Counted from the first letter of the stretch, positions 7,801-38,840 are shown. The stretch is DNA of 38,840 nucleotides from Conidiobolus incongruus B7586 (GCA_000697335.1 JNEM01010535.1:1-38840); one strand, 5' to 3'. Program-made: numbers and translations. The notes: generated by a model from the letters alone, not told the origin.

Positions 7801-10790
7801 CCAAAGGATGGTGGCTCTTCGGACATGATAGAGTTTTCTTCAGCAAGGATCTTAGTATCTTTAACAAAGTTATCCCATTCAACAGCATACAAAGATTTCA
7901 AGTATTCCAACATAGTAACTCGAGTAAACTGATCATCTTCACGAATAATTTCTCTAAGGGATAACAAGATTTTTTCAGCATAATGAGGTGTGAATACAGT
8001 GAAAGTAGGCATGTTCTCAACAGGCAAAGGTTCAGGAATAACTGTAGATAAAGACGAGGCAAAGAAGGAGATACGACGCTCAGCTTCACTTCCAGGTGGG
8101 TAGAATTCAGCATTGACTTTTGTATCTTCTTGTGCAACAAAGAAAGTGGGGGGCTTGAGTTTCTTCTTACCCTCAACATCACTAGCCACTTGTTGATAGA
8201 GTAATTTCTGGACATGGTCAATGGAAATCAAATGATCACGATACATGGAAATCACAATCGCATTCCATACTTGAGAGCAAAGCATTTTTGGTCGAAGCTT
8301 GATTTCCATATTTGTGGTAGCTAGGATTTTGGTATAGATTCTTTTGGGGAGTCTGGAAAAAATATTTTTCCATGGAGAAAGTATGGAGATTCCCATCGTA
8401 AAAGCATGTGCAATACTAAACATAGAAGTCATAATAATGTACCAAAGATATGTATCCAAGAAGAACATAATTAATAACAATAAAGCCATAACCGCAATTG
8501 TGATATAGGGCATATATTGAACCACGTAGCCTTGCAAATAAGGATCTCTAGTATAAAATTGTTCAAAAGATGTTTCCTTATTGGTCAGTGCTCTTGCAAC
8601 AAGGAATAATGCTGTCATCGGATTTTTAAATGACAAAATCAAGGCCAAGTAACTTTCAACTATTTTAGCAATTGCAATACACGCCCACATCGAAAGAGAA
8701 GTCGCTCTGTTATGGAAAGATAAAGGTGAAAAGTCAGCAGTGAAAGCACGATTAATTAATCCGTTGTTGCTACTGTTGGCAAGAGTAAGACGAGGATTTC
8801 GAACGAATAGAGAATTGGGAGGTATTGTTGTGAGGATTGCAGTTGTTAAAATACCAATGACTAGAGCGACAATTCCGATGATTTTACAAAGATTTTGATC
8901 CCTCTTATATAAGAATATAGCAGCAGCACCTGGTATTACATTGGCCAAGAAAATCAAAAAGAGCATAAAGTAACGGTACATTAAGATTCGATAGTTTTTC
9001 CAGCTTTTCTGAACAAAGAAAAATTCAAAAAATGTGGCAGAAAGAGCAACTAATGCAGCAATTGCCCCTCCAAAAGAGATTGCTGCATAGCTTCTAGGGT
9101 TCGTATAATTCTGATCAGTTTTTGCTAGTTCATACTCAGCCTCTTCATAAAACATGATTGGACTATTATAAACCCAGAAAATGTAAAAAGTAGCCAAATG
9201 GAAAATCCAGATACGACTGAAGTTAGTAAGAGTATGAGCCCAGGTTCTTCTTTCGTAATAGGTCTTGATAAAGGATCGCTTATAGTTCACCTCTCCTAAC
9301 TTAGTCCAACGTTCGTGAGGATGGATCGACATCAAAGGGGTCTTTTTATCTGATAGAACAATACGATTAACTCCCTCCTTTGTCCAGAAGGTTTCATTAA
9401 TATCATCATAGCCAATGACCTGAGCATGATCTCTCTCTCTTTTCAAGAACTGGCCATTAACCACTTCATAATTTTGATCTCGAATATATTCGTATAGCGG
9501 TGTAATCACTTTGCGGAGATACTCTCCCTCTGGAACCGGTTGAGTGAGGTTTTGGCAGATTGGACCATGGTAATAGTCATAAGCAAGCTTGAATAAGAAA
9601 CAAAGACACTCGGGCAAATAACGGATATTAAGAGCTTCACCCCACAGACATAGATAAAGAGCAATTTGAAGCACACGTTCGTGTTGAGTGAGTTTGCTCA
9701 TCTTGTTACGCCACCATTCTTCGAGGGAATCGGCCATCATCATCTCCTCGACCTCTACATTATGAGAATCCTTTGCATTGGAGTTTTGTGAGTCAAATTG
9801 TAAGGGTGAGTCCTTGTTGAATTCGGCAGCAAAGTACCATTTGCGATAATTTGCATATTTTCCACCAATATAATCAGCATGGAGGGTCAGAAGAGCCATT
9901 GTAGGAGACATTCGGGAAGCACGGGAATCGAGCAAAGTCATGAAGGCATCGTATTGATTGCGAACATTGTCCTTTTGGAACCCAAATTTATCACCAAGGT
10001 CATTGAATATATCCAAAATCTCTTCCTTGGATAAAGGCACTTGATGTTCGGCGCACCATGCAGGCCATGGATAGTCTTTAGCCAAAGAACGATGGCCAGG
10101 AAGATCAAAATAGTTTGTCTGTCCATTTGCTTCAGAAACCCAAGAGCTAGCACGAGAAAATGAAGACACCGAATTTAACCCAAATTGGGGTTTTCTGCTT
10201 TCGATTAAAGCAAGTAAGGATTCTGTTGAAGGAGCGTAGCGCGCATATCTACTATCAGATAATTTGGGATTGCGAATAGCACCAAATAAATCTAAATTTG
10301 CAGCATATCCAGACTGCGAATTTGGAATCATTGATGAGCGATTGGAATGAATATCACTACGAGCCATAGAATCTACTTCAGAATCTGCATAGCGGTGAGT
10401 ACGAGGAGAGTGGCGGGGTTGACCCACATCTGGATAATAATTTTCCGAAGTTAGATGAGCATCGCGACCACGGTCTCCTTTAACCAATTCGGCATCAAGC
10501 ACAGGTGATGGTTGTTGGGGATGACCTCTAACATGAGGAGAGTCGAGGGAAGAATCTGAAGAATAGTAAGGAGAGCGGTTGGAAGGATCACCTTCATAAT
10601 GATCTCTCTCGTAATAAGAGCTTTCATCCAAATAATTGTTTAAAAATGAATTTTGTTGGTTATCATAATTAGGATTTCTAGGGTCAAAACTATCGGTTGA
10701 CATATTCTGGTTGTAGTAGTTATCGTTATTAGGATAACCACCCCCTCTTTGCGGCGGGCGGGTATTAGGATTATAACTTTCGTTTCTCAT
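4893..10790 (-). CDS. FKS1: 1,3-beta-glucan synthase catalytic subunit (GT48), intronless, 1965 aa
   Basis: Uninterrupted ORF with FKS motifs FGFQKDN, ALYLCLWGEA, GYDDINETFW, EAERRISFFA, PILGDGKSDNQNH, IDANQDNYLEE, HYGHPDF, GLHLNEDIYAG and QCGKGRDLGF, and many transmembrane segments. Confidence 0.99.
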   Translation of the reverse strand: MRNESYNPNTRPPQRGGGYPNNDNYYNQNMSTDSFDPRNPNYDNQQNSFLNNYLDESSYYERDHYEGDPSNRSPYYSSDSSLDSPHVRGHPQQPSPVLDAELVKGDRGRDAHLTSENYYPDVGQPRHSPRTHRYADSEVDSMARSDIHSNRSSMIPNSQSGYAANLDLFGAIRNPKLSDSRYARYAPSTESLLALIESRKPQFGLNSVSSFSRASSWVSEANGQTNYFDLPGHRSLAKDYPWPAWCAEHQVPLSKEEILDIFNDLGDKFGFQKDNVRNQYDAFMTLLDSRASRMSPTMALLTLHADYIGGKYANYRKWYFAAEFNKDSPLQFDSQNSNAKDSHNVEVEEMMMADSLEEWWRNKMSKLTQHERVLQIALYLCLWGEALNIRYLPECLCFLFKLAYDYYHGPICQNLTQPVPEGEYLRKVITPLYEYIRDQNYEVVNGQFLKRERDHAQVIGYDDINETFWTKEGVNRIVLSDKKTPLMSIHPHERWTKLGEVNYKRSFIKTYYERRTWAHTLTNFSRIWIFHLATFYIFWVYNSPIMFYEEAEYELAKTDQNYTNPRSYAAISFGGAIAALVALSATFFEFFFVQKSWKNYRILMYRYFMLFLIFLANVIPGAAAIFLYKRDQNLCKIIGIVALVIGILTTAILTTIPPNSLFVRNPRLTLANSSNNGLINRAFTADFSPLSFHNRATSLSMWACIAIAKIVESYLALILSFKNPMTALFLVARALTNKETSFEQFYTRDPYLQGYVVQYMPYITIAVMALLLLIMFFLDTYLWYIIMTSMFSIAHAFTMGISILSPWKNIFSRLPKRIYTKILATTNMEIKLRPKMLCSQVWNAIVISMYRDHLISIDHVQKLLYQQVASDVEGKKKLKPPTFFVAQEDTKVNAEFYPPGSEAERRISFFASSLSTVIPEPLPVENMPTFTVFTPHYAEKILLSLREIIREDDQFTRVTMLEYLKSLYAVEWDNFVKDTKILAEENSIMSEEPPSFGLEEDADKATGKSKTDDLPFYCIGFKSAAPEFTLRTRIWASLRSQTLYRTISGFMNYSKALKLLHRIENPELVHVLGGNTEALEQELDLMSRRKFNFVISMQRFTKFNKEEKENVEFLLKTYPDLQIAYLDEVPSETEGEPPTMYSCLIDGHCEPDENGVRVPRYRIQIPGNPILGDGKSDNQNHAIIFTRGEYLQVIDANQDNYLEEALKIRSVLAEFDEYIAPPHSPYAPPSQLDQDLPPVAIIGAREYIFSENIGILGDIAAGKEQTFGTLTHRIMATIGGRLHYGHPDFLNMIFMNTRGGVSKAQKGLHLNEDIYAGMNAFQRGGRIKHSEYIQCGKGRDLGFCSVLNFNTKIGTGMGEQLLSREYYYIYSQLPLDRFLTLFYAHPGFHINNMMIMFSIQVFLLAIACTAILYLGLPGTASGIGEDSFEWDPTTPKLNQYSILGWVRRTILSVFLVFFITFLPLILQVLSEQGFSRMASRLGKQIASLAPMFEIFTTQIYSHSILSNLSFGGARYIGTGRGFATTRQSFATLYSRFASSSIYSGMRSLLLLMFCCVTLFTAPLLYFWFTCLGLILSPWLYNPHQFSLMEFILDYRNFLHWMSAGNSSSAKDSWIAHCRYARTRITGQKRKKLGDKERKIGAHIPRANRLIIFVSEVLLPFLTAIFLIAIYSVLGCFARPMTTFLKTGAQFTEDPTPPPNADKLVPYAGGTGLVKVAIVAVVPIALNAGILIVLFPVSLFLGPIMSICAKSFGGIIAAIAHAWAVLNLVICFLILWFFENWKFGNTLLGLTASMFLQRAIFSLLMFLFLTREFGHDGANVAWWTGKWVSAGLGWMTVTQPLREFVCKIIELSLFATDYIVAHVIWFMLAPFTLIPLIDKWHSMMLFWLRPSRQIRPPIFSLRQRAQRRRASILYGILFIVTFVFFLAIIIGPLFIGDILYNNNIRPSRWVPKSLEGILFKEFTSES

Positions 10791-11301: not shown

Positions 11302-14300
11302 AGTGATTTGATCTCAATCACATCAAAGGACTAGGATTCGCTACTACTGTTTCTTGCAACTTGGTTCTAATTGTTACAAAAATATGAATTGATTCAATAT
11401 TGGTTTTGGCTTCCTTTCTCAATCCTTTTTTTAGGTAAAATTCAACTCAAAGATAAAAAAATGAAAAAAAATATAACTAAATTAATGAGTCTAAAAACAA
11501 TATGATATGAATTAAGAGATTACTAGTATCATGGTTGTAGGCTTGAAGAAGTGAATAGGATGACGACTGAATATCTTGGAAGTGATGTTAATCTGAATCG
11601 ATGTTAAGGTGTGGGAAAGATACAATGCTTTACACACTCTTATCAATATTTTTGACATCAATTTATCTAATAAGTGATTAACCAATCTGATTGGGGAATC
11701 ATTTTGGACACCTCTTCTAAGGTGTATAACCAATTGTTACTTCAATTTTAAGCATTGTAGTCCACTTCCAAATTAGCTTTGTACCACTTGAAATTTATCC
11801 TTTAACAATGATAACTATCTTTAAGGCGCCAAAGGAATTGATAAATCGTAATTAAACGAAATTATTACAAGGGCAAAACTTGTTTTTTCTATGAACATTT
11901 AACAATTTCATAAATTTTATTTAATATTATTTTACATGATAAAAGCTATAAAAATCAACATATTTTCCAAATAACCAAGAAATAGCCATTAGATTTTAGC
12001 CTTTTATTATCGAATCTGCTAGTCAAGATTCTAATAATAGATATGACGTGGTATTTTGTCATAGATCTTTTAAACTGCGTTTTTCAGTATCCAATTTATC
12101 TCTATGATATAACCAGTCTAATAAATTGATCCTACATATTTTACTCAACATTCGTTTATCAGATGATTATGAAGTACAAAATTTGATAGTATTAAATTAA
12201 AAAATAAACAACATCATTGTTAATAAACTAATTTTCAACTAAAAATTGTATAATATGTGAATTATAAGCTACGCCTTTTGCTTTAAAGTTCATACACGAT
12301 ATTAAGCTTTAAGATTTTCCTAATATTAACAAATATAAGCTCAGTTTATCCACTCACATGGCTCAATTTGATTTTCTAAATTTGCTTTTATATTTATCAT
12401 TATTTGATAATTTACTAGTTCAAAATTTAACAAATCGAATTAAGCAATTCTCTGTCAAACAACGAGCAATAAGGTCTAAAATAGAAATTAAAAAAATATT
12501 CAATCATTATATAAGGTTCATAATGCTAAATTGATAATATCTTCGTTAATATTCAAATGAATAGTGTTACTTGGCTTTGAAAACAGCTGATATGAAAATT
12601 CTGTTAGCATCGATATAAATAAACTATAATGGATTGTTAAACTAAATTAAATAATTGTCACTTATGAATATGTAATGCCATTCTTGGTAAAGAAATGTAT
12701 AATTCCTCCTAAATTCGGATCTCGCATTATTAGCAATAATCTGCATGTCTCATTTTAATTCAACCAACTCAAAACCATTTTTTGATGTTTATGATTGTTT
12801 TGTTTAATCGAATCGAATTTATCCTTTTGAATACTTTCGGATAATTTCTAATACCATAATGTTGAATATTCTATCAGTTAAAGTATGATGTTTGCAGGAT
12901 TATTGTTACCAATGATCGAAATACTCTTAAGTTTGACTTAGCCTATTTGGTACATTAGATTGCGGGTTTCTGGATGGGGTAATATCCAATTTGAGTACTT
13001 TTCAATAGCCATAGCATAATCATTGTTCTAGAAATCATATGAAGATACCATATTATTGTATAACACCATTATCAGCTATTTTTGAACCATAAAATCTATA
13101 TTCATGTTGAATATTCCACCTAAAGGTAACAATTAATTTGATATTTCTCAATTAAAATAAAACCACATCAAATCTATGGTAACATTCTGTTTTCCATTTC
13201 CACATATGACAATCCACAAGAATAGTCCATTATTCAGAGTATGTTTTCTGTTACAGTCTAGAATGAAATGGAAAATGAAAACTTTATAATAAAATCAAAT
13301 ATACTAGTTGAAAATTGAGATTAAAATTTATACTATTACATTGATAAGTTTATTTGAATTAAAGGATTCAAAAGATAGCTCGCACGAATAATAACTATAT
13401 AATAAAATTACTTTGAAAACATTTGATTACAATTAATTTTCAATATAATACTAAGTGTAGTATAGGAAGGTAAAAATTTTGATATTACTTGGATATTGAA
13501 GTTAATTTGAAAATAATCACCAAATCGATAATAAAATATACCTTTATTAAATTTCCTTTAATTTATATTCAATAAATCAAAAAAGATTTACTTTGTTAAT
13601 TTAATATATAAAATAGCTGAATTACTTTTATTTTTGAGTTATTTCGATATCTACTTATCCACAATGTTAATTTGAAACAATAGCTTGAGAATATTATAAC
13701 CTTGTTTCATTGATATGATCGAATTTATTGTTTAATTTTATGTTAACTATAAAATATGATTCATCTATGTGATAGTTTTAAAAATCAATTCTACATATAT
13801 AGTAAAACATAGTTGGAGATTTGGAAGTTGAATTAAATTTGATTTATTAAATATAACCCTCCAATTATATATCTTAGAAATTGATTGATTTGGTGACTAT
13901 TTATATTAAATTAGTTCAACAAACATCACCTAACAATTGGCTTAATTAACTGACTATCGCCTGAAAATGAATAATTGGTATTTAAATCCAAAAATGTATG
14001 TTAATATAAAACTAATTTTGCTTCTTAAACTTTGAATAACCTAACTATAGCAGAATCAAATATTAATTTCTGAATATAATTTAAAATGATATAAACATAA
14101 ATATTAATGCTATAATTGTAATTAGAAATCAAAGTATATGATTAGTATCGAAATAAAATTAATAGTATATCATTCAATATATATTCTTGTAGATAGATTT
14201 AATTCAAATAATAAAACATTCAAAGACACTAATTTTATTAATATTTGAACAAATATTTTTTGACAATTTTGATTTTAAAATTTTTGAAAATATGTAAAAT

Positions 14301-15890
14301 TAACTCAATAAATTTGTATATAATAATATGTTACATAATTGGAAATTAGATTGATTTTTAATAATATGAAATAACTAAATGAGTTAAACTTAATATTACT
14401 GTCATTATAATTCAAACAACATAAAAATAAATATAATATGATACTTTCTGAATATATTATTAATCCATCATCTTCAATTTTTATATTGTTTATTATAAAT
14501 AGAAAACATGATATGATGTAGAAATATATAATTTAAGAGGTATTATTTATCAAATCATGATAATATAGTATACAGGATATAGCTCAATATAATTTTAGTT
14601 CACTATTCAAGTATAATAAATTGAATTTTTACTCAACAAATAGTCGAAAAATTCTTGATAAATTATTTAAGATCATCAATTGTGAGAGTTAATTTAATTT
14701 CGTTAATTTCTCACTATATCTAAAAATTAGATAATATTTATTGGTTATAACTTGATTAAAAATTTGAATAAAGCATAGAGTTTATTAGATAGTGACAATA
14801 TATACAATTGTCCATCCTATTAAAATTAACAAAAAAATAAATATTAATAAGAATATAAATGCTCATAATAAAATATTCACGATATTCAAATACTTATAGC
14901 GTTTTTACTTATATAGTATTTTTCTTATACATTGTAATACAATCGTTTTGATCATTTAACTATCATCAATAGTGTTGATTGAATTATTCCAGGATTTGAT
15001 CGGGAAAAGCTGCAGCCTAAATTACATGAAAAATCTGTTGAAATAATACTCTGTTGATGCATATGTTATATGCTGAAATAATAACTTGATGATACTTAAA
15101 TATCTAAAGCCATAAATCCATAAAATAATTTGGATAATAATCAGGATAAATTATAATTCATTAAAATTTTTGGAATACTTTTAAATAAAAAGTGTCAATC
15201 TGATTACTTTCAGTAATAAAATTAAATTATCTCCTTCCAATATTAATTTAATAAAATTTAAAGTTTGTGTGATATATATTCAGATCTAATATAGTATGAG
15301 ATCTTTTTTCACCTTTAAGTGATAATATAAATATCTATATTTTCTCTAATCTACTGTTTTATATATGATAGGTCAATTATTTTTTTAATCATATTAAAAT
15401 ACTTGACATATTTTCTTATTTTGAAATTCATTTTTAATATCTGATATTATATTGTAATTCATCTTTTTTTGAATTTTTATAAATTTACTAATAATATAGT
15501 GAAAAAGTTTGGAAATGAAACAGCTAATATGATTGGACACTTTTACTTGAAAGGATGTAGTATTTAATTATAGTTATTGATTTTTGCAAAATTTAAATAA
15601 TTGTTTCTAATGTATTTAATTTGAACTATATTATTAACCACATCAATATTTGAATAGTCTTTGCTAAATTATTTATACTCAAAATATCTGTGTCTTATTT
15701 CCTGGATGATATTCATTTAATAATTTATCCAATACTTCTGTGTCACATTAATTCGTAACCATAAATTCAAGCTATGACTTAGTATATCGATTGTCTTCTC
15801 AAATATACTTATATTACTATAACATTAAATAATAATATATAGTTATAAATTATTTATTATTATTATTATTATAAAATATAATCTAATAGA

Positions 15891-18298
15891 ATGTTAAAAT
15901 TACCCAAGTTATCTCCCAAGCAGAGATATTTTCAAATATTTAGTACAAATACAGACGTTGGAAAAACAATTCTGACAACAGGTCTTGTGAGAGGCTCATT
16001 GAAGCTTGGTAAAGCCACCAATTACTTAAAACCAATTCAGACGGGCTATCCTAAAGACTGTGATGCAAGGTATTTCTAAAGTGTTTAAACCTTAGCTGAT
16101 AGCTAATGATATTCTAGCTTCATTAAGAAATTTAATCCCAATGTCAATAACAAAGTGATCTACACTTATCCAGATCCAGTCAGTCCCCACATCGCCACAA
16201 ATGAGGTAATGTCATCTTACTAAGTGACTCAAATAGTTATCTAATAGCCATATACTTCCAGCCTCCTTCTGATCAAGAAGTATTACACAAAGTGACTGCT
16301 GAGTTGATCAATTTCCAAAGCAATGAAAATTTGGATTCAACTACCTTTGTAGAAACTGCAGGAGGTACAAGCATAATCTTGGTTAATAAAGCGCTCTAAT
16401 ATAATTGATTTTTAGGTGTAAATAGTCCTACTTTATGTGGAACTTTGCAATCCGAATTTTATCGACCTCTCAGATTGCCTGTGGTACTGATCGGTGATGG
16501 CCAACTTGGAGGGATTTCAACCACCATTTCTTCATACGAGTCTTTAAAAATGAAGGGCTATGATATTTCCAGTATCATTATGTTCCATAACCCCAAGTAC
16601 CGAAATCATGAGTATTTATTCGACCATTTTAATGGCCAAATTCCTATTTATTTTGTCCCTCCTCCACCTCCTAAATTGCCAAACGCTCAAGAGGATTATG
16701 AGCAGCTGCAAGAGTATTATTCTCGCCATCAAGACGTATGGTCCGTTGCCAATCAAACTCTCATCCAAAGCCATCAAAATCGACTTAACAAGCTCAATGA
16801 CATGCCTCAGCATGCTAGCGACATTCTTTGGTGGCCCTTTACCCAGCATAAGCTGGTCGATAGCGTCAACGTCATTGATTCAGCTTACAAAGACGATCTT
16901 GTTATTTACGACCCTCCAAGTGGACAACTAAAGCCTAAATTTGACGTGTGCGGCAGTTGGTGGACTCAAGCCCTGGGCCATGGATCAGTAGAACTAACAC
17001 AAGCTGCCTCTTATGCAGCCGGAAGATACGGTCACGTAATGTATCCCGAAAGCGTCCATGAGCCTGCGTTGAATTTGGCTCAATCTCTCTTAGATACTGT
17101 GGGGAATGGATGGGCTTCTAGAGTCTTCTATTCTGATAACGGAAGCACAGGAATTGAAGTTGGACTGAAGATGGCAATGAAATATACTGAAAATCATTAC
17201 GACACCATCTACCCTCAAGACAAAGCCAGTAATCTTACTCAAAACAAATTGAAAATTATTGGTCTTGAAGGAGCCTATCATGGCGACACAATAGGTTGCA
17301 TGGATGCTGCAAATCCCAATCATTACAACGAGCAAGTCCACTGGTATGATCCCAAAGGCTTCTGGTTTGACCCTCCTACCATCATGAAGTCTTCCAACGG
17401 ATATACCATTACTTTACCATCGAACATCTATAAGAATGATGCAAAAGTCACTTTGGATTCTCTGGAAGACATTTTTGATTCAAGTCGTGATTCTTCAGAG
17501 CTTGCTTCAATTTATTATAAACATGTAAAGGAGCAATTGTCCAAGGCTATTGATGATGGCTATAGATTTGGTGCCTTGGTACTTGAACCTGTTATTATGG
17601 GCTCTGCTGGTATGCTATTTGTTGATCCATTATTCCAAAGGACTTTGGTAAAGGTGGTAAGAGATAAATGGCCTGTCCCTGTGTTATTTGATGAAGTTTT
17701 TACTGGATTCTTCAGAACTGGACCTCCCACTGCTTCTCGTTTACTCAATGTTGATCCCGATATTGCTGTATTTTCGAAGTCACTAACTGGGGGACTAGTT
17801 CCTTTATCTGCTACTTTGACAAACGAAACCATTTTCAAGGAGTTTGAAGGGCCAGCTAAGACTGATGCCTTACTTCATGGCCATTCTTACACTGCTTATC
17901 CAATTGGCTGCGAGGTTGCCAGAAAGAGTATTGAGTTGTATTCTAGAATCTATCCTAGATCATCTCCAATAAACACACAGCCCTCTTCTAAATGGTCTGA
18001 AGAATTGGTCGATAAGCTGATTGAAAACCCTCAAATCAATGGTGCTTATCGATTGGGAACTGTTTTAGTATTTGAGCTCCGGGATGATCAAACTTCAGGC
18101 TACAACTCAGCCAAGGCCAAAAAATTACTTCGTTGGTATCATCACCATGTCACCAATCCAACTGAGCAAAGTGATGTTCCAGAATTATTTATTCGTCCCT
18201 TAGGAAACCGATTGTACTTTATGATGTCTCATATCACCTCAGATTCTCAGCTTAAAGAGGTTGAAAGTACCATCTTAAAAGGGCTTGAACATATTTAA
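15891..18298 (+). CDS. BIO3-BIO1: Bifunctional dethiobiotin synthetase / 7,8-diaminopelargonate (DAPA) aminotransferase, ~750 aa; exons 15891-16069, 16118-16205, 16262-16364, 16416-18298
   Basis: DTBS motifs STNTDVGKT, YLKPIQTG, PVSPHIA, VETAGGVNSP and LGGISTTIS. Class III aminotransferase motifs WWPFTQH, SWWTQ, YSDNGSTG, YHGDT, FDEVFTG, PLP-lysine FSKSLTGG and LHGHSY. Three GT-AG introns splice in frame (2253 nt). Confidence 0.96.
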
Positions 18299-20312
18299 AA
18301 TAAAGCCAAATATTATTTATTTAACTCAAAATTTAATTATATACTATCTCAATACATTATACAGCTTAGCCAACATGGTGTATTATCATTTGCTTTATTA
18401 AATTATATAATAATACTTGACTAGATTAGTTTATAGAATAATCTTATATACTCTTAGATTTAATATTTTAGAGTGATTAAGCTATATTGGTTATATTAAA
18501 TCCTTTTATTAATAACTAGGAATGGGTTTTATAGTCTTAATCATATATATCATTTTACTTGTACAACAATACTATTAGTTAAAATAAATTAAATAATAAT
18601 TTTAATTGAGTTTTAGACTAAATTGGATTGTTATAAAAATAAACCTAAAAAGATATTAATTTATATAAGAAATTATATAAAACTATTATATTCAATCTCA
18701 CTGATCAACCACTTGTACTTTTTCAAATTTCTTAACTCCCAAACATGTTCTTTTTTTATTTATTTGTAAAATCAAAGTTCTTAATTGGAATAATAAGTGT
18801 AAAATTTAGATGTTTAGACCTCCAAATAAATTATTAATATTCCAAAAAAAAAATCACAAAGATTCATTTCAAGTGAATATATTACATGCGATTGAATCCA
18901 CCAATAATTTCACAATATGCTATTTTTCCCTCTTTTTTTCATATTGATATAGGCAAGTACTTTGCAAAATAATGAGTTTGTTGAACTTTTTAGCATCAGC
19001 TCAATATCTAATATATTTCTCAAAAAATCAAGCTTAGATCATTCTTATTGTTGTTATTTTATGATATAATAAATACTAAAGTATATTACATTTCTATCTT
19101 TAAATTTTTTTTATATTATTCATTTTTTGAAATTTTAGGAAATAATATATATTTTTCAATTAAAATATAATTTAAAATAAATAATAGGATTATAAAATGG
19201 GAGTTAACTTTTATATATTGCAATTATATTTTTTAGTATACTACATTTAGAATTTTAATTAAAAAATTTCTCATAATATTATTTATACCTCACATTGTGA
19301 CACTTGAAATAAAATATATGATTTTTATTTTTATTATTATTTAAATAATTCAATCTGTTTGATTAAAATATGATGAGTTATAATATATTTAATATTATAG
19401 TTAGTGATTAATATTTTAATATATAAAAAAATAAATATATGGATATAATTCTGAATTTTTGATAATTAAGTTTTTTGTTATAATATTAAAAAGACTTAAA
19501 TCAACATCATTTTCAATAGTCTATACTTCTTACTCAAAATGACTAATCCTAAGTTTTAAGATAGGAATAAAATAATTATATAAAGGTTTTCTTCAAGTTT
19601 GATATATTTGCTAGGGTATATGACCAGCAAAATTATTAAATTTTCAAATGACCATTATTTATATGTCAAATTTATCAATGGTTAAAACCTAGTATTATTT
19701 CCGAAATAAAAAAAATTATAAAAATTTTGTAATAATATAATAACATTAAATTAGTAAATATATTTATTTTATAATATTATAAAGGAATAGTTCTATATTT
19801 AACTGTATATTTAATTTACCACTGTTCATTTTTTAAATGATGATATATTCAATATAAATTAGTATATTGAATTAACACACTTCTATATATCACTTAGTTT
19901 TTAGAAGTGTTGATTAAAACTCAAGACTGAACTTGATTTTTGATCTGCGCGATATTGATTGACAAGGAAGTCAGTATATATGGAAAGTAATTCTAATTAA
20001 AAATATAATACAAAATAATTATAAATATCAATATTAATTTGTAAAATAACCAAATATATACAAGTTTAAAATTATTGCTGGTTAACAATAACATCGTAAT
20101 AATTTTCCAATTATTTAATTTATAGAAATTTTAAATAAACAAAATGTAAAATACAAATTAAATTCAAGTCACAACTCTCTCATTCAATCCATTTTGAGTT
20201 TATAAATTTATAATTATAGCATTTTAATTCTTCAACTTTTCTTTTATTTATATATAACGTTTATATTTCATATTATTAAGATTTCTATATTAAAATTTAT
20301 TTTGTAATTCTG

Positions 20313-25087: not shown

Positions 25088-25533
25088 ATGTTGGGAAGTT
25101 GGAATAATCTAGAGGTAATAGTATTCCACTTTATTTATCTTGATAAATACTTAATGACCATAAGAAGTATTTGCATTTATTAGAATGCTGGGAAACTGCA
25201 ATCAAAAGGTCAATATTGAAAAACAGAGCACTTCCACTAGAAGTCATTTACAGGATCTATGAAAAAAGAGTAATTAGAAAAAATTTACCTAAGCGCTCCT
25301 CTCGCACAGCAATGGAAAAATTGTGGTATTTGAAGCATTCTTATAAAACCATCAAAAGATATGAAGGAGAAGAGGAAGAATGGTTTAAAAATCAAAAAGT
25401 ATTAAATCGCACAGGAATTAATAAATACATTCCCATATCTAAACAAGTATTTTTTAAAATGAAGAAACTGGTAAAGCTTTATGAAGTAGAATATTTGTTT
25501 GCTACCAATCAAGAATTAATTAGCCATGATTAA
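25088..25533 (+). pseudogene. Possible frameshifted F-box-like gene fragment
   Basis: ATG 25088 gives MLGSWNNLEVIVFHFIYLDKYLMTIRSICIY*, which loosely resembles an F-box (L..E....IF.YLD...L...R.VC). A different frame continues ECWETAIKRSILKNR as the 120-codon ORF 25171-25533. Confidence 0.3.
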
Positions 25534-25806
25534 AATACATTTGAAATTTATGATCAATTTTTATTCAAAATTTCGAAAAACTGAAAGAAAACTGAGACAT
25601 TTTATCATCTATTAAATTCAGAGGAAATAAAATTAATGATAGGTATAAATGATGATCACAAATAAGGACAGAATCTAGCTACAATGAATCAATATTAAAA
25701 ATATGTTTACACCAAAATTAGGAGTAATATATACCATTATATAAGCTTAATGATAAACAATGTTAATAATTGATCTTTTCCATGAATATCATTAATATTA
25801 TTCACT

Positions 25807-27078
25807 CTAAAATTGCCATTCCAAATCAAACTCGATGTGAGTAATTGCTAATGAATTGTAATAAAGATATGAAACCACATTTCCTGTGATCAATTCATGT
25901 GAATTCAAGCTTGAACCAAAATCAATTCCCTGGTGTATATTCAAGGTCATTTCATTTTGGTAATGAGCCTTTCCAAACTTTTGATATCCCAGCAATTAAT
26001 TAAATGTCCATTCTACATTTGCAAAATAAATATTTTTTATAAGAACTGAATTTGAACTACATTTAAAATTAATATAATAAATCAATATGACTATTAGATA
26101 CTTTATATCTATAACCACATTAAGAACTGTGTTGATCATATGAGTCAATACCAAAGTTTATTCGTCATAGAGTTGGATGGAAGCGGATGAAGTCCCAAAT
26201 CAAGCATATTATAATTATAGTAGTTGAAATCATTAGAAGATATGGTGCCTAATTTTAATTAATATTGATTAAAATCTAGAATGAAAAATTGCTAAACTGA
26301 TTGATCTTCATTATTTCTTTTGGTTGGCTTAATTAATATATTCGTTCCATTATTACTAGATTTATTCACATCAAAAATGCATATCATATTCATTGATACA
26401 TCATACATTCTAATTACATCAGTGACTAGGATATATTTCATAATAGATTATTAGATTAATTGTACGGTATTAAGTGGGTTAAATTAATATATTGTGAAGC
26501 CACAAGTTACTCTATCATCTAATACGACATAATTTTCATATGCCAATCCATTATCCATATTACATAATTGGACAAGATATGGTTTAGTATGTTTAATAAA
26601 AGGATGTGTATTGATGTTTACATAATCATAAATAACTGGATTAATTAACTATTGAGCTCGAAAGATACCACAATGGTTATAGGAAGGATACTAATCAAAA
26701 TCAAATATGGGCTTTGATCTTGGTAACACTAAAAAAGTTTAAATAGTGTTTATTCAATCAAATTAAAATCAGTTTTAATGATCTATAGTTAGTCTTTAGA
26801 TTAGACTATACCTTGTCTTATTTCATCCGGATAGAATTTGTCATTTCTAAATATTTGTATTGAATATGGGTGCAATTGATGGAGTTGGGTATGATGGTAT
26901 ACTAACAAATACCACAGTTTCAGTATATCATTGCTTGAATTGATCAAAATAGCAGGACCATCAGGAGACCCAATCTACAGATCAATGTCGATGTTCATTC
27001 ATATATGATATAATAGATGTAATTTTGCTCATTTAAAGGATCAAACGAAATCATTTCCACAATTGGAGTCTGTATCAT
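25807..27078 (-). pseudogene. Degraded gene relic of unknown family (weak aspartic-protease-like hints)
   Basis: GC content is above the intergenic background, with short coding-like frames broken by stops (IDL*IGSPDGPAIL; NHCGIFR; ELITGNVVSYLYY...EFDLE). No catalytic DTG/DSG was found. Confidence 0.2.
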
Positions 27079-27425
27079 TATATTAAGTACAAAGTTACCG
27101 TTTTTGCAGCAATTGTAGGATCATTATCTAGTGAGGTTTATTATTTACATTTGATTAAATAGTAGAATTGGTTATTTCCATATTATATGTATTAATCTAT
27201 TTCATCACTTATTACAATATTTTAGGCCCTGTTACCAGTATTTAAACCATGAGTTGATTTTACTTGAAATGCGATTATGGGATTTTATATTAAAATTATT
27301 TAATATAATGAATAAATAAATTTGATAATGTTAATTCAGAAAAAATTGATATTCTGTAATTGATACTGAATGAAATATAAAATGCAATAAAATTACATAA
27401 TATGAATATTTATTTAAAACAAAAT

Positions 27426-31666: not shown

Positions 31667-31979
31667 TTATTAAATACGATTGTATTGTATATTGCATTAT
31701 TGAATTTGATCTATCCTATTGAGTTTTAATCTTTAGCTTTTATTGTTTATTTTAATTCAATCCATTTCAATTATTCAAAATATATTTTCGACATTATATA
31801 CCTAATTATTTATTAAATTACATTGATATATACCAATATATTTGATTATAGATTTGTAAGGTATCTTTGCATATAAAAGCATTATCTTAATCAATAAAAT
31901 TAAATATTTTTATTCTTCTATTTGTTTCAGTGAATAATTTAGTTTTGATGATTTTGATTATATACAATATAATGGTATT

Positions 31980-33053
31980 ACCATAGAATTAAAGAAATGG
32001 CAAATTTTTTAATATTAGTTGTTTAATTTAAATATGTTTAAACTAAATAGTGATTATTAAAGTTTTTTATTTTAATATTAGTAAAACTAAATTATAAATC
32101 TTTTAAAATTATTTAAAATTTACAAGTAACTTTTAATAATAAAGTATTATTTAAATCAACAATTTATTGTTAGATAAATTACTTTAAAGCTAACAAAAAA
32201 ACTATTTAAAACTTGTTAAAATTTAAAAAACTAATTTTAATTATTACTCTTTTAATTATTAATAAAATGAAAAAATATATTGAAAAACACCTTTTTATTT
32301 TAGTTTAAGAATTATCAAGATACTTTAATATTAATTATATAAATATTATATATATTAAAATTTAAATTAAAATTAAAATTAATTAATAAAAATATAAAAT
32401 AAGTATCTTATAATTTAACTAAAGATTAAAAAATTTAAAATAGCTATTATTAAATAAAATTAAGATATAGTTAGAAACTAAAGTTTTTATAGTTGATTAT
32501 TATAATTAATAAATCTTTAATCATTTTATATGATTTTTTACTAAAATATAAATTAAAATGTTAAATTAAATAAACTTTATTTATAAATTCCTTTAAATAA
32601 ACATTAAATTAATAAATAAATATTAATTGTTATTATAAATTATAATAACATATACTATTCTAATTTAGTTTTTAAAGTAAAATTAATTAATAATAAACTT
32701 TATATTGTTTTTTCAAATAAAACTATTTTTAATTAATATTCTTAATATAATTTAAAAAACCTATTATTTTATATAATAATTGTAAAATATATAAAAATAA
32801 AATTTTAAAAATTTTTTAATTAAAAATAATTAGAAAAAACTATTATATCTATTATATTCTTTAAATTATAATTTATATAATTATAATTGTTTTAAGTAAT
32901 TAAAAAACTAGTTTATAAAAAAAAATTTCTATATCAAAATTTAATTAGTTTATAAAATATTAATTTTTAATTTTAAATAAAAAAACTATCTTTTATATAT
33001 TAAAACTTTATTAAAAATATAATCAAAAGTTATTAATAATAAATAAAGTTATT
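31980..33053. other. Extremely AT-rich, CpG-free block, probably an older hypermutated repeat into which the LTR element inserted
   Basis: Almost devoid of G/C, TpA-rich, and no CpG seen. Similar sequence resumes at 38780 beyond the right TSD. Confidence 0.45.
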
Positions 33054-33058
33054 AATTT
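33054..33058. repeat. Left 5-bp target-site duplication AATTT
   Basis: AATTT immediately precedes the LTR start TG (33059), and the identical AATTT follows the other LTR end CA (38774). Confidence 0.85.
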
Positions 33059-33456
33059 TGTAAGTGTAGTGGTAGTTAAACTAATATAGTATAGAGGAAA
33101 ACTTAATATAAAAGTAGTGTGGTATAAAATATAGTAATATAATGTAGTTATAGTGTGTAAGTGTAAACAAAGTTTAATTAAGCTTTGAATTAGGATGAGT
33201 CACTAATATATTAAGATTTATATTAGGTAGTGTTAATATCCTATAATATTAATAGAATATAGTCTCAATTTTAGAAATAGTGTAAAAGTAAAAAATAGTA
33301 AGAATTGAGAGGAAAAAAAAAACCTAGTTTATTAAATAATTTAATACTATTTATACAATTAATTTAACTATATAAGTATAAATTAATTATATAATTTATA
33401 GTTAATTAGATTATATAAAAGTGTATATAAGAATTTAAAGAACTAGTCTTTTAACA
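33059..33456 (-). repeat. 3' LTR (398 bp)
   Basis: TGTAAGTGTAGT...CTTTTAACA aligns end to end with 38374-38774. Confidence 0.96.
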
Positions 33457-33464
33457 CTCCCTTA
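33457..33464 (-). other. Eroded polypurine tract
   Basis: Minus strand reads TAAGGGAG directly abutting the TGTTAA start of the 3' LTR. Confidence 0.6.
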
Positions 33465-33499
33465 ATAAATTTCTTAGAAGAGACACACTCCCTAATTTT

Positions 33500-36400
33500 T
33501 ACAAATAGGTATAATAAGCTAAGGTATTCTTAATATTTTCTAGAGGTTCTTATGTAGCTTCTTTAATAAGATAACCTATCTATTTTATATAAAAATAAAG
33601 CTTATTCCTAATAGATTTAGATTTAATTATATAATCAACATAGTATTCTTCTTCTCTATCTTAATTAATAATTAGGTCTAGTTTTAAAGTTTTTAATTAA
33701 TTAAGAAAAGTGTTAAAATCTTTAAAGTATGGTTTAATTTTAGATATGTGAAAGGTAAGGTTGATCCTCAAAGTTAAAAGTAATTCTAAGGTAATATTTT
33801 TAAAATTTGAATCAATAAATTAAATTTTATAGGGACTATAATATAATAGTAAGTATTTAAGATTTAAGCTAGATTTAAGTAGGGTAAGTTTAAAGACAGA
33901 TTGTTCTAAGTATACAAACATACTAGTTTTATATTTAAAAGGGTTTCTAGATAACTTTAAATATTATTATTCTATGATCCTTTAATTTTCTTCTAAGTTA
34001 AATTTAACAAGGGAATTAATATGTTTGATATTAGATTAAAATTCAACAATGTCCAAAAGTAAGTTGATTTAAAGTTTTAGAGTAATTATTAAGTTAAGAT
34101 GTTTATTATAATTGATGAAATAAAAGCTAAAACCTGTTAATTTATTAATAAAGGTGTTGAATAAATATTAGAGTTGGTAGATATAAGCATCTTAATTTAA
34201 TTGATTAGTGTTAATATAAGCTTTAATCATTTACTTTAAGGTTTTAATAGTTTTTTCAACAAGTTTATTAGTTTAGTGATGATTAATAGTAAACATAGCT
34301 AGGTTAATCTTAAGGGAAAAGGATAATAACTTCCAGAATTAAAAGTTGAATTGTATGTCTCTATCAGATACAATAGTTTGTGGAATTCTATAGTAGGTAA
34401 AGATATTAGAGAATAACAATTATACAACATCTTTAACTGTAAAAGTTTTGAAACAAGGAATAAAATAAACATATTTGGAAAATGAATCAATTGCAATTAG
34501 TAAGTTATTATAACTATTTGTTGATTTAAGGATTTTTATGAAATCAAGCTGGATTTGTTGTTAAGTTTTATTAGGGACTTATAAAGGAATAAGTTTACTA
34601 TATTTTAATTGAGTATTATATTTAGTTCTTTAGCATATATCACAAGTATTAGTGTATTTTTGAATTGATTTAATTAGGGAAAGCTAGTAATACCTTGTTT
34701 TAATTTTCTTAGTGGTTTTTAACTAGTTTTGATGTCCTCTAACAAGTAAGTTATAGCATTCATTAAATATTGTTTGTTAAATCTTGGGAATGTTAGGAAT
34801 ATATAGACAATTATTATAATATAGTAAGTTATTGATAATTTTAAATTTTTTGACATATTTTAGTTAGATTTCTAATGGTTTAAAGAGTTCTTCTTTAACT
34901 AAAATAAAGAAATCATTATTTAACAGTGTTTCTTAAAGTAGTTTAATAAATTTTTTATTTCCTTTATTAATAATCATTAAGTTAATATTTGCTAGATTTT
35001 TACAATTAGAATAAAAGGGTAAGTATGTAAGATTTTTTAACAAAGTATCTACAACATAGTTTTATTAACCTAAGAGATATTAAATAAAGAAAAGGTAAGC
35101 TTAGATAGTTTTAATCTATCTAACTTATCTTTTTAATAAATGCTTCTAAGTATTTAAGTAGATAAGTGATTTATAATCTGTAAGTGTTAAAAAAAAATTG
35201 TAGGATAAGAAATGTAAGTGATTTTTGATTATTTCTACTAAAGCAAAGAGTTTTTATTTATAGACTAGGTATTTCAATTCAGCTAGTTTTATTTTTCTTA
35301 ACTAGAATGTTATTAGTTTTAAAGTAACATTTATAAGGTTAAACTCAATTTATTCTCCCTTATTTATTATTTTATCTTATAGTTATAGGGTAAAATATAA
35401 ATTAAATTCAAACTAAGCTAATTATCTATTAATTACAAAAGAACTAAAGTTAGTAAAAATAATAGTAGGTAGTTTTAGATTAAAGATAGATAAAGCAAAA
35501 ACATTGGTAATATAGAAAATTAAAGTATTTATGCAGAAAGTATATAGTGGGGTTTATTTAAAAAGAGAGTTTTTCTTCAAGAGATTAGTAAGAAAAGTAA
35601 TAAGTTCAGCAAAAGAATCAATGAAATCTTTAAAGTAATTTAATAATTTAAGTATAAACATAAGTTGATCTTTGTTTATAAATATAGTAAAAGCTTTAAT
35701 ACCATTGAGTTTAGTTAGATTAATACTAATTCCTTAAGAGGAAACAATATAACTACAGAAAAAGACAGAAGAAGCACTAAAGATACATTTTAATAGTTTT
35801 AAGGGTAATTTATATTCTTGAATAATTTGTAAAACTTAATTAACATGTTAAATATATTCTTCTTTAGTTTTTAAATAGATTAGGATATTATTAAAGTAGG
35901 TAATAACAAAGTTATTAAAAACAGGGTTAAAAAAAGAATTGATAAATCAAGTAAAAGTTGCAAGAACATTACACAATCTAAAGTTTATAACAATAAATTT
36001 ATAGTGACTTAAAAGAGTGTTGAAAGTAGTTAAAGGGATAAAGTTTTCTTCAACTTTAATGTTGTAATATCTATTCTTAACATTTAGTTTGGTAAATATA
36101 GTTGATTTAAGTAGTTTATCCCTAACATCATATAAGTTTAGTAGTGGGGTTTTATCCTTAATAGTTTTAGAGTTTAAAACATAGTTATCAATATAAAGTT
36201 TTTAACTACCATTAGCTTTTTGTATAAAGAGGATTAGAAATTTTTATAGTAAGGAAGAAAGTCTAATATACCCATTTTCAAGTAGTTTTTAGATTTCTTC
36301 TTTTAAGGTTTAGTATTATTCAAGAGATAAATGGTAAGTAAGCTTTAAATATAGTTGTGTACCAGGGATTAGTTTAATTTTGTGTTTAATATTATGTTTA

Positions 36401-38247
36401 GGTGGTAATTTATTTACAAGTTCAAAAACATTAGCAAATTAACTTATTGTATTGTATAAGAAGTAGTTATTAGATATAACTTTATTAAAATTAACAGATG
36501 AAGTGTTGATAGATGAATAATAAACAAATACATATCTTTATAAATTATTTAAGTTTTTGATTAGCTTTTTACATTGATTTTTACTTATAATAATAGAATT
36601 ATTTGCTACAATTGTAGAATTAGTGTTAGGTAAAGCATTTAATAATTTTATAGTAGGGTAATGTAGATTTTTTGAGATTAATTCCACTAATTTCTTTTAG
36701 AATATAAAAGAGATAAATTTGTAGCTTTTTGGGGTAACATCTATAGATATAAAACTGTGATATTCAAACTAATTTTAACCTAATATAAAATTATAACTAA
36801 TGTTACCAACTAGGAATTTAATATATTAGGAGTAGTTAAGGGGTAATAATAGGTATTTAGATATAGTATTAGGTGCTTGTTCTATTAAGTTGTTAGTATA
36901 TTTAATTATTAAGTTGCTTTTTTAAGTAGGTAAAGATAACTTTACAACAATAAAAAAAGAGATAATACAACTAAAATAGCTAGAGTTAATTAAAACACTA
37001 ACAGGTATATCTATAAAAAAACTAGTTAACACAAACAATAAGGTGATAGTTAAAGGTAAAAAATTACAAGGTAGATTAGTTACTAAAATATTTCTAGTTT
37101 CTAGTGGTTTAATCAGTTGGATTTCTCTAGTATACATAGTTTAATTTGTAGAATCATTGGTTTATTGGAACTTTTGTGGATTAGATTAAAATCTGCTAAC
37201 TAATTGTAAAAGGGGTGATTCTAGGGTTATATTAATATTATTCAAGTTTGATTTATGGTTGGTAAGTTGGGATTGTTGAAAATTAAACAGATGTTACTTC
37301 CTTAAAGGGTATTTGTTAGTTTTATAGTTAACTTGAGTTTTTTAGCAGTAATAACAACCTTTGTTTGTTTTCAAGTAGGCTTTAGCTTCTTCACTAAAGG
37401 TTTTCTTATAAAACCTTAAAGCAGAAACATCTATCATTTAAAACTTAAGTGGGTTAAAATAAAGTTTAAAAGATTAATTTTTTAGGTGGGAAGATTTAGT
37501 TATAGAGTAAAAGATATTATTAATTATAATTGCTACATTACAAATGTTAAAAAAAAACATATTATCAAAGTATTCCCTACTAACAAATTAAAGCTTTATT
37601 TGAGAGTTAAAGCATTGTAATAGTTTGTGGATTTATTCTTCTTTAGTGATATTTAATATGTTTAAGCATATCTTATTAAATTTCTCAATTAATTGTTTTA
37701 CAGAAGTTTTTTATTTAAGTTGGGAAAGTTTTTCTCTTGTTAATTAAACTTAATCTTTTAAGTAATACCTTTCTTTAAGGGTTTTTTCTAATTGTTTAAA
37801 AGTTTATATCTTTGTAGTAAGCTATCCTCTTAAAGATTTTTTAGGATTAAGTTTATAATAAGTTAACTACCAAATATAAATAGATTTTTCTAAAAAAGAA
37901 GTAGCTAATTTAAAAATATTCTTTAGATCTTTATTAAAAATTAAATCAAAGTAATTCTTTATGTTTTTAAGGTAGTTTTCAAGCTTGTAAAGGTTTTTTA
38001 AGTTATCATAAGTAGTTAATTTATCTTTAAAGATACTAAAGAGGTAGTTTAATGTATTAACTATAATGAAGTAGCTGGTTTGTTAGATTTAAGCTTTTTG
38101 AAACATGTTTTTTTTAATCAAAAGTTGTTTAATATAAGTTTTTTAAAAGGTAGTAAGCTTTTAGAGATTAAAGTCTTAGATTCACTTAGTAATTAAGCTA
38201 CTATTATTATTAAAATAATATAAGGGTATCTTCTTTTTTAGTGGTAT
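33500..38247 (-). pseudogene. Single-frame gag-pol polyprotein relic with many nonsense codons
   Basis: All motifs lie in one minus frame. Putative start ATA-CCA-CTA-AAA (38247, inferred ancestral MPPK); gag ATSFLEKSIYIW*; Zn knuckle GCYYC* (37356-37345); protease VLINSS (36987-36979, ancestral DSG); RT IFTKLNVKNRYY (Asn 36084-36082), VINFRLCNVLATF and YFNNIL (35898-35881); RNaseH IFTNFSSFVI and LTDYKSL; integrase RGHQ...TCDIC*, IVSDRD (~34374-34357) and YYSPYKI; chromodomain EEEYYVDYII...YIK*IGY...AT*EPLENI (~33655-33530). Confidence 0.95.
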
Positions 38248-38360
38248 TATAGTGTATAGTGTTAAATTTAAATGAAATAAATTATAAATAAGATTTAAAA
38301 TAGTAATAGATAGGTTAGATACAAGTAGTTATTAATTTCTAGTAGGTTTTTAACAGTAAT

Positions 38361-38373
38361 CTCACTATTACCA
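38361..38373 (-). other. Primer-binding site
   Basis: Minus strand TGGTAATAGTGAG directly follows the 5' LTR. TGG is complementary to the tRNA CCA end. Reverting two transitions gives TGGTAGCAG, an initiator-Met-type PBS (inference). Confidence 0.7.
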
Positions 38374-38774
38374 TATAAGTGTAGTGGTAGTTAAACTAAT
38401 ATAGTATAGAGGAAAACTTAATATAAAAGTAGTGTGGCACAGAACATGGTAATATAATGTAGCTGTAGCATGCAAGTGTAAACAAAGTTTAATTAAGCTT
38501 CAAACTAGGATGAGTCACTGATATATTAAGATTTATATTAGGTAGTGCCAATATCCTACAATATTAATAGAATATAGTCTCAATCTTAGAAATAGTGTAA
38601 AAGTAAAAAATAGTAAGAATTAAGAGGAAAAAAAGAGGAACCTAGTTTATTAAATAATTTAATACTATTTATACAATTAATTTAACTATATAAGTATAAA
38701 TTAATCATATAATTTATAGTTAATTAGATTATATGAAAATATATATAAGAATTTAGAGAACTAGTCTCTTAACA
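38374..38774 (-). repeat. 5' LTR (401 bp)
   Basis: TATAAGTGTAGT...CTCTTAACA; the inner terminal TG is itself mutated to TA relative to the other LTR. Confidence 0.96.
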
Positions 38775-38779
38775 AATTT
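38775..38779. repeat. Right 5-bp target-site duplication AATTT
   Basis: Identical to 33054-33058. Confidence 0.85.
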
Positions 38780-38840
38780 TATATTATATATATATTTTTA
38801 TATATTATATATTAAAATATTTATTAATTTTAACTATATA

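Follow-up and report, generated by a model that had tools for sequence, protein, structure and literature searches.

A Ty3/Gypsy retrotransposon with long terminal repeats (LTRs), lying in a stretch of the Conidiobolus incongruus B7586 genome (GCA_000697335.1, JNEM01010535.1:1-38840), has been mutated by a C>T process that acted on both strands in the chromosome, depends on sequence context and is confined to the repeat. The element is about 5.7 kb long, structurally complete and placed on the minus strand of positions 33059-38774; the whole stretch of 38,840 nucleotides is called the window below. A first-pass annotation, made from the sequence alone, had proposed a hypermutation resembling repeat-induced point mutation (RIP) within a lineage where RIP is not established. 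The repeat-confined transitions hold up, but the novelty was overstated, since RIP indices have already been reported, with caveats, for Entomophthorales; RIP in this order has been suggested by indices, not established. What is new here is alignment-level evidence for a repeat-confined, both-strand and mostly non-CpG C>T process in Zoopagomycota. The process operates like RIP and may or may not be RIP in the strict sense (homology-triggered and premeiotic), and we favour, with a probability of about 0.45, a RIP-like mutator linked to a methyltransferase of the DIM-2/DNMT1 class and working on repeat chromatin.

Directional damage in gag-pol and in the LTR pair

The damage to the coding part was measured in the conserved columns of pol, with 151 Ty3/Gypsy proteins as the comparison set. 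The element is altered at 42 of the 99 columns conserved to at least 90%, and 37 of these 42 residues can be reached by C>T/G>A alone, none by the reverse changes and two by C>A/G>T. At the columns conserved to at least 75% it is altered at 94 of 197, with 65 reachable and none reverse at the protein level; the homologues themselves are altered at 10.7% of such columns on average (maximum 33%), and for them 17% are reachable and 10% reverse. The earlier claim that most conserved motifs are altered is therefore a slight overstatement, but its explanation of the damage by C>T and G>A stands. The individual motifs that it named are all present: codon AAT at 36084, 35892 and 35889 of the reverse transcriptase, where 99-100% of the aligned homologues have Asp and the element reads Asn, NSS in the protease (at 36979-36987, where we take D[S/T]G to be the normal motif), FRLCNVL at 35982-35962 and SPY at 33837-33829. 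The LDF and VSDRD motifs of the integrase and the zinc-finger cysteines are still intact.

For a nucleotide spectrum, tallied without filtering, we used fixed positions (first and second of the codon) at which P0283, the nearest relative, has the same state as the consensus. C>T was found at 42/112 positions and G>A at 62/136, A>G at 0/149 and T>C at 2/171, with transversions at 4-7%. Dense and almost exclusive C:G>T:A transitions, as RIP is known by, are thus what the element carries. About 45% of the testable C/G positions in pol have been lost, which by extrapolation would amount to an estimated 1000 or so transitions from an ancestral element of about 39% GC. In the FKS glucan synthase gene of the same window, 49 of 716 conserved columns are altered, with 9 of these alterations reachable and 6 reverse, but this gene is a weak control because it is under selection.

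The loss is strongly dependent on the neighbouring bases. There is no CpG in the element (61 expected; GpC occurs 58 times), ACG, CCG, GCG and TCG are all at zero, and the final 7,051 bases of the window lack CpG altogether, whereas the longest gap between CpG sites elsewhere in the window is 814. Among the remaining contexts in pol, CpA has been lost at 65/104 sites, CpT at 34/89 and CpC at 14/66, which gives the rank CpG (none left) > CpA > CpT > CpC, although some of the neighbouring bases may have been mutated too and the distinction between CpA and CpG is blurred accordingly. A pyrimidine on the 5' side raises the loss in pol (YCA 54/70 against RCA 11/34, YCT 28/62 against RCT 6/27), and the effects of the 3' and the 5' neighbour are independent (p 3e-6 for each). 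Such a dependence on both neighbours is expected for an enzyme.

Mutation also went on after the insertion, as the LTR pair shows. Of 385 ungapped columns, 26 are not alike in the two LTRs, with transitions in all 26 and no transversions; the comparison leaves out 16 columns of the 5' LTR or 13 of the 3' LTR, which include a pyrimidine tract that differs in length by 3 nt. By context, the losses are 4/4 at CpG, 14/29 at CpA, 7/50 at CpT and 1/9 at CpC, so that 22 of the 26 lie outside CpG. If C/G is taken as the older state, an assumption that the pol spectrum supports, the 95% upper bound for transversions is surpassed by the rate of C/G loss at least 36-fold overall, at least 32-fold when CpG is left aside and at least 62-fold for CpA. 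Relative to the other copy, the 3' LTR has suffered 20 losses (14 G>A and 6 C>T on the sense strand) and the 5' LTR 6 (C>T), a difference with p 0.009, and in the 3' LTR sense-strand G has been lost more than C when stratified by context (Cochran-Mantel-Haenszel p 0.02; a post hoc test on 19 events). The unequal load of the LTRs and the strand skew of the 3' copy suggest several episodes that were partly strand-polarised.

The LTR pair and pol also stand apart at CpT, with 7/50 sites differing in the former and 34/89 lost in the latter. This could come from variation in rate between sites, from homogenisation of the LTRs or from mobilisation of a template that was already mutated.

Flanks, single-copy DNA and the host lineage

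The genome is AT-biased, yet the signature of the element is not genome-wide. A composite RIP index is positive in 26/26 windows from 32001 onwards and weakly so in 2/128 before that point. Single-copy non-coding DNA is as poor in GC as the element (21.5% and 21.8%), but six AT-rich single-copy stretches (16-20% GC) retain CpG, 74 in all when both strands are counted, with a CpA:CpT of 625:519 where the element has 356:702 (p 4e-23). Genome-wide AT bias is rejected on account of these stretches, and the possibility, raised with the original proposal, that single-copy DNA would show the same spectrum did not materialise.

The earlier statement that the transitions are confined to the repeat is right as to the AT-rich single-copy DNA, from which they are absent, and has to be modified as to the immediate surroundings, where about 1.07 kb to the left also carries the signature (CpA:CpT against single-copy DNA, p 2e-5). 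This left flank begins about 320 bp beyond the stop of a gene, called TTC14-like at first, for which Pfam gives TPR repeats only; to the right, 38775-38840 has 1.5% GC, with one C/G in the 66 bases up to the end of the window. The left flank gave no Pfam match in six frames and no match to 176 retroelement proteins, and its similarity to the element in a transition-blind comparison is not above that of shuffles (score 44 against a mean of 46). Either the mutation spread into it from the element, or the element landed in an older repeat that is by now fully eroded and forms this flank. The pattern by which RIP is recognised, with repeats and their immediate flanks affected and genes and single-copy DNA spared, is thus found, at one locus. 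Elsewhere, a weakly positive index without any CpG was seen at 1-500 (0.24) and 18251-18750 (0.15), and a further mutated stretch may have its edge at the former.

The FKS gene also served to place the host, which is thus a placement by one gene, in two trees, one with 35 rows and one with 16, drawn from 120 matches. Its open reading frame (ORF) of 5.9 kb is intact, as the first-pass annotation had it. The best matches are from Neoconidiobolus, Massospora and Entomophthora (67-71%), with ascomycetes at 53-55%, and the gene falls within Entomophthorales (support 99-100), where the paralogue pairs that Neoconidiobolus and Entomophthoraceae have are its sister group. The duplication to which Neoconidiobolus, Massospora and Entomophthora owe their two paralogues came after its divergence, which would make the host lineage Conidiobolus-grade. 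Joining it to Pezizomycotina is rejected (approximately unbiased test, p 7.6e-24), and with that the ordinary RIP of Pezizomycotina, which would have made the case unremarkable, is ruled out. The FKS tree thus supports a zoopagomycotan host in Entomophthorales, as had been guessed from the style of its genes. With such a host and clean single-copy DNA, the damage is neither ordinary RIP nor genome-wide AT bias.

Structure of the element and the rest of the window

The description of a complete element with a single gag-pol frame is borne out by both LTRs, the AAATT target-site duplication and an unshifted frame (Table 1). The 5' LTR ends in TA at the position where the 3' LTR has CA. Stops make up 76 of the 1582 codons of the frame (64 TAA, 10 TAG and 2 TGA), but there is no frameshift, because the frame aligns with one homologue, over residues 91-1576, as a single unbroken piece. 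The absence of indel decay claimed earlier therefore applies to gag-pol, and the length difference in the pyrimidine tract of the LTRs is the one departure from it. Pfam matches to gag, reverse transcriptase, RNase H and integrase, and a weak one to the chromodomain, share the one frame, and the tail region aligns with the homologue P0121, which carries PF00385. Membership in Ty3/Gypsy follows from the order reverse transcriptase-RNase H-integrase between LTRs together with the target duplication.

Table 1. Coordinates of the element, its flank and the marker gene in the window
Feature	Position	Strand	Remarks
FKS glucan synthase	4893-10790	-	intact ORF, 1965 aa; taxonomic marker and unmutated control
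Left flank with the element's signature	31990-33058		about 1.07 kb, 8.9% GC, 0 CpG, CpA:CpT 28:63
Target-site duplication, left copy	33054-33058		AAATT read on the minus strand
3' LTR	33059-33456	-	398 bp; TG...CA
Purine-rich stretch, presumably polypurine-tract-like	33457-33465	-	before the 3' LTR
Dead gag-pol frame	33502-38247	-	1582 codons, about 4.7 kb; start approximate
Chromodomain-like tail	33523-33645	-	Pfam Chromo E 0.043, below cut-off
Integrase zinc-binding domain and rve core	34348-34782	-	E 2e-10 and E 9e-4
RT_RNaseH match	35095-35322	-	E 1e-7
Reverse transcriptase RVT_1	35749-36153	-	E 2e-9
Protease active-site position	36987-36979	-	reads NSS; putative
CxxC zinc-knuckle-like motif	37356-37345	-	3' of the gag match
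Retrotrans_gag match	37615-37836	-	E 8e-5, slightly short of the curated cut-off
Primer-binding-site-like stretch (label assumed by us)	38360-38373	-	TGGTA start, directly after the 5' LTR
5' LTR	38374-38774	-	401 bp; TG start, TA end
Target-site duplication, right copy	38775-38779		5 bp, AAATT

Two proteins from metagenome contigs (JGI/IMG), P0133 and P0283, form an intact sister family of the element (support 100, with 17 gap positions in 1153 aligned). Of 20 proteins looked up (19 retroelement matches and one FKS), two had an organism name, an alga and a pseudoscorpion, and both fall outside the clade of the element. Beyond the element, the gene at 15882-18298 has an AAA_26 match and, after it, one to aminotransferase class III, and is likely a fused biotin-pathway gene, presumably of dethiobiotin synthetase and DAPA aminotransferase. 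Three moderately GC-rich regions, 1694-3757 (minus strand), 11500-15600 and 25147-27319, contain ORFs without a Pfam match, which are probably intron-rich or lineage-specific genes. There are no tRNA genes in the window, and its tandem repeats are trivial.

The putative mutator and its relation to known systems

The mechanism that we favour would begin with the element being marked as repeat chromatin. A C5-cytosine methyltransferase of the host, of the DIM-2/DNMT1 class, would then modify its cytosines in both CpG and non-CpG contexts, and the modified bases would be fixed as T faster than by passive decay, over several episodes with partial strand polarity; RID would probably be dispensable for this. 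Methylation at CG is suggested because the loss of CpG is total, the at least 30-fold loss outside CpG points to more than decay at CG, and the affected flank of about 1 kb resembles the DIM-2 branch of RIP and not the leak of RID. In published work, the DIM-2 branch mutates adjoining non-repetitive DNA while RID-dependent RIP leaks about 150 bp (bioRxiv 2021.04.05.438447), clusters of RIP mutations in Neurospora are on one strand (PMC7296669), and Dim2 of Zymoseptoria drives CA>TA mutation in mitosis (PMC8016269). Phycomyces, which is also early-diverging, has both DIM-2 and DNMT1, with its LTR elements methylated at CG and CHH (PMC11258239), and the DNA-methylase proteins of Entomophthoraceae exceed 1200 aa and are merely 12-14% identical to RID (PMC11105155), a length that would fit the DIM-2/DNMT1 class.

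Several observations weigh against this reading. No DNA-methylase match was found in the 51 ORFs of the window that were scanned, and the case is a single locus, with no second copy of the element in metagenome or viral contigs: a search of the metagenome contigs with the P0283 pattern gave 23 pattern matches and 0 confirmed copies, and a transition-tolerant motif of the element gave 0 matches in viral and 0 in metagenome contigs. The left flank could be a relic of an older repeat instead of the product of spreading, the strand test on its 19 events was picked after the data had been seen, pol as a whole has no strand bias (p 0.57), and the preference for a 5' pyrimidine is not seen in the small LTR set (YCA 6/11, RCA 8/18). 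Moreover, Dim2 of Zymoseptoria spares CG (PMC8016269), whereas the element has lost all of it, and Zoopagomycota have been described as poor in 5-methylcytosine (PMC11258239). That Entomophthorales possess a true equivalent of RIP, in which a RID-independent methyltransferase actively mutates DNA that has been recognised as duplicated, we consider doubtful; the only duplication demonstrated here is the LTR pair.

An explanation that needs no dedicated mutator is passive decay, by which dense silencing methylation at CG and non-CG sites is followed by spontaneous deamination of 5-methylcytosine. The excess from such deamination is usually about tenfold, and it is difficult to reconcile with this that 22 of the 26 LTR differences are non-CpG, at 32 times the transversion bound or more, that the LTR load is unequal and the 3' copy strand-skewed, or that the extrapolated 1000 transitions are accompanied by no frameshift. 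We hold passive decay to be unlikely for these reasons, but not to a degree that lets it be set aside, as a complete loss of CpG is its classic footprint, the strands of pol are affected about equally, methylation of LTR elements at CG and CHH is known in Phycomyces (PMC11258239), and CpG-only signatures in fungi have been ascribed to this route (PMC4352252). Canonical RIP, with a RID/Masc1 orthologue mutating homology-paired duplications before meiosis (at zygospore formation) and ordinary decay of methylated CpG on top, would agree with CpA as the preferred non-CpG target in both pol and the LTRs, with the composite index from 32001 onwards, with the company of RID/Masc1 and CpA/CpT signatures (PMC4352252) and with a RIP index covering 24.2% of the Zoophthora genome (PMC11105155). 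We nevertheless find it decidedly improbable, as the host lies outside Dikarya and the leak of RID-dependent RIP, at about 150 bp (bioRxiv 2021.04.05.438447), is far shorter than the flank of about 1 kb seen here.

Editing by a cytidine deaminase of the APOBEC/AID type, whether it struck the complementary DNA (cDNA) as the element retrotransposed or the chromosomal copy afterwards, would account for the 5' pyrimidine preference in pol and the excess of sense-strand G>A in the 3' LTR, but cDNA editing gives G>A on one strand while sense C>T is almost as frequent here, the flank beyond the element is affected and no NCG of any of the four types is left, which makes it very improbable; one-strand, element-confined G>A of the APOBEC type is not what the element carries, and cDNA editing alone is rejected. 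Just as improbable is an untargeted or non-native origin, be it that genome-wide AT bias acted where selection is absent, that the sample was damaged or that a piece of RIP-mutated ascomycete DNA became joined to the contig at a possible junction near 31800-32000, a region known from the assembled sequence alone: single-copy non-coding DNA is equally AT-rich and the relatives of the element bear no fungal taxon name, but that DNA differs in its CpG and CpA:CpT, the index is hardly ever positive before 32001, sample damage would not halt at a repeat and the target duplication is intact.

If the mutator is of the DIM-2/DNMT1 class, as we favour, this older branch of RIP may be an ancestral fungal defence, and a gene-dense lineage of Entomophthorales would be a place for studying RIP that is independent of meiosis and RID. 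A true RIP equivalent in the order would mean that repeat-induced mutation predates Dikarya or arose separately in Zoopagomycota, and that it has been overlooked because AT-rich genomes conceal it from k-mer screens; it could also bear on the contrast between small and gigabase genomes among members of Entomophthorales. For RIP outside Dikarya, the literature gives a high index for Zoophthora (PMC11105155) on one side and "no_rip" for 8 Zoopagomycota (PMC12543289) on the other. The latter score, for all 8 included, comes from a kingdom-wide screen of 1,239 genomes (2025) in which the 130 species with strong RIP signatures all belong to four ascomycete classes (PMC12543289). When its k-mer rule was roughly emulated for our window, with gene limits drawn by hand, there were 0 doubly enriched k-mers, because the GC of the element equals that of single-copy non-coding DNA, and the element thus shows how such screens can miss this kind of mutation in AT-rich genomes. 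Conidiobolus coronatus, also scored "no_rip", has 0 1-kb repeats at 95-100% identity and 555 at 80-95% (PMC12543289, supplement file 3), a profile that fits repeat erosion or assembly collapse. The literature searched, which did not extend to subscription papers, held no alignment-based RIP test in Entomophthorales, and the available parts of PMC4858203, PMC13297926 and bioRxiv 2023.01.30.526367 held no information on the order.

Among known systems, the element itself is like the chromodomain-bearing Ty3/Gypsy retrotransposons in its order of gag, protease, reverse transcriptase, RNase H, integrase and chromodomain (the last a weak match here), its TG...CA LTRs and its 5-bp target duplication, but it belongs to no named family, with P0133 and P0283 as its nearest relatives at 35-36% identity. 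Its mutation shares with RIP in Neurospora crassa (PMC7296669, bioRxiv 2021.04.05.438447) the dense C:G>T:A changes in a repeat, the preference for CpA over CpT and CpC, the spared genes, the affected neighbouring DNA and hints of one-strand episodes, a likeness of sequence signature from which the zoopagomycotan host and the complete loss of CpG depart. The mitotic mutation by Dim2 in Zymoseptoria tritici (PMC8016269), a methyltransferase-tied mutator with no need for sex, is likewise dominated by transitions, confined to repeats and directed to CpA; over 98% of its C>T changes are however at CA, and CG is spared, whereas the element has no CG left and has lost CpT and CpC as well (34/89 and 14/66). 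Repeat-focused C>T mutation outside ascomycetes is known from the TpCpG hypermutation of Pucciniomycotina (PMC3318451) and the CpG decay linked to Masc2/DNMT1 (PMC4352252), where CpG is also the hottest site and a 5' pyrimidine also has an effect, but these are restricted to TpCpG or CpG, and the changes here are mostly non-CpG with all NCG types lost. Mutation at TpCpG only is ruled out by these zero counts and the 22 of 26 non-CpG changes in the LTRs. Closest in lineage are Zoophthora radicans and other Entomophthoraceae (PMC11105155), which belong to the same order, are positive for the same dinucleotide index (24.2% of the genome in Z. radicans and 2.4-5.7% in three relatives, reported with major caveats; eLife 2024) and have repeats dominated by Ty3 elements. 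That work used composite indices only, on giant genomes and without Neoconidiobolus and Conidiobolus; our analysis sets beside it a substitution spectrum with context and controls, obtained where genes are dense, in a host with an FKS gene that lies outside Neoconidiobolus plus Entomophthoraceae.

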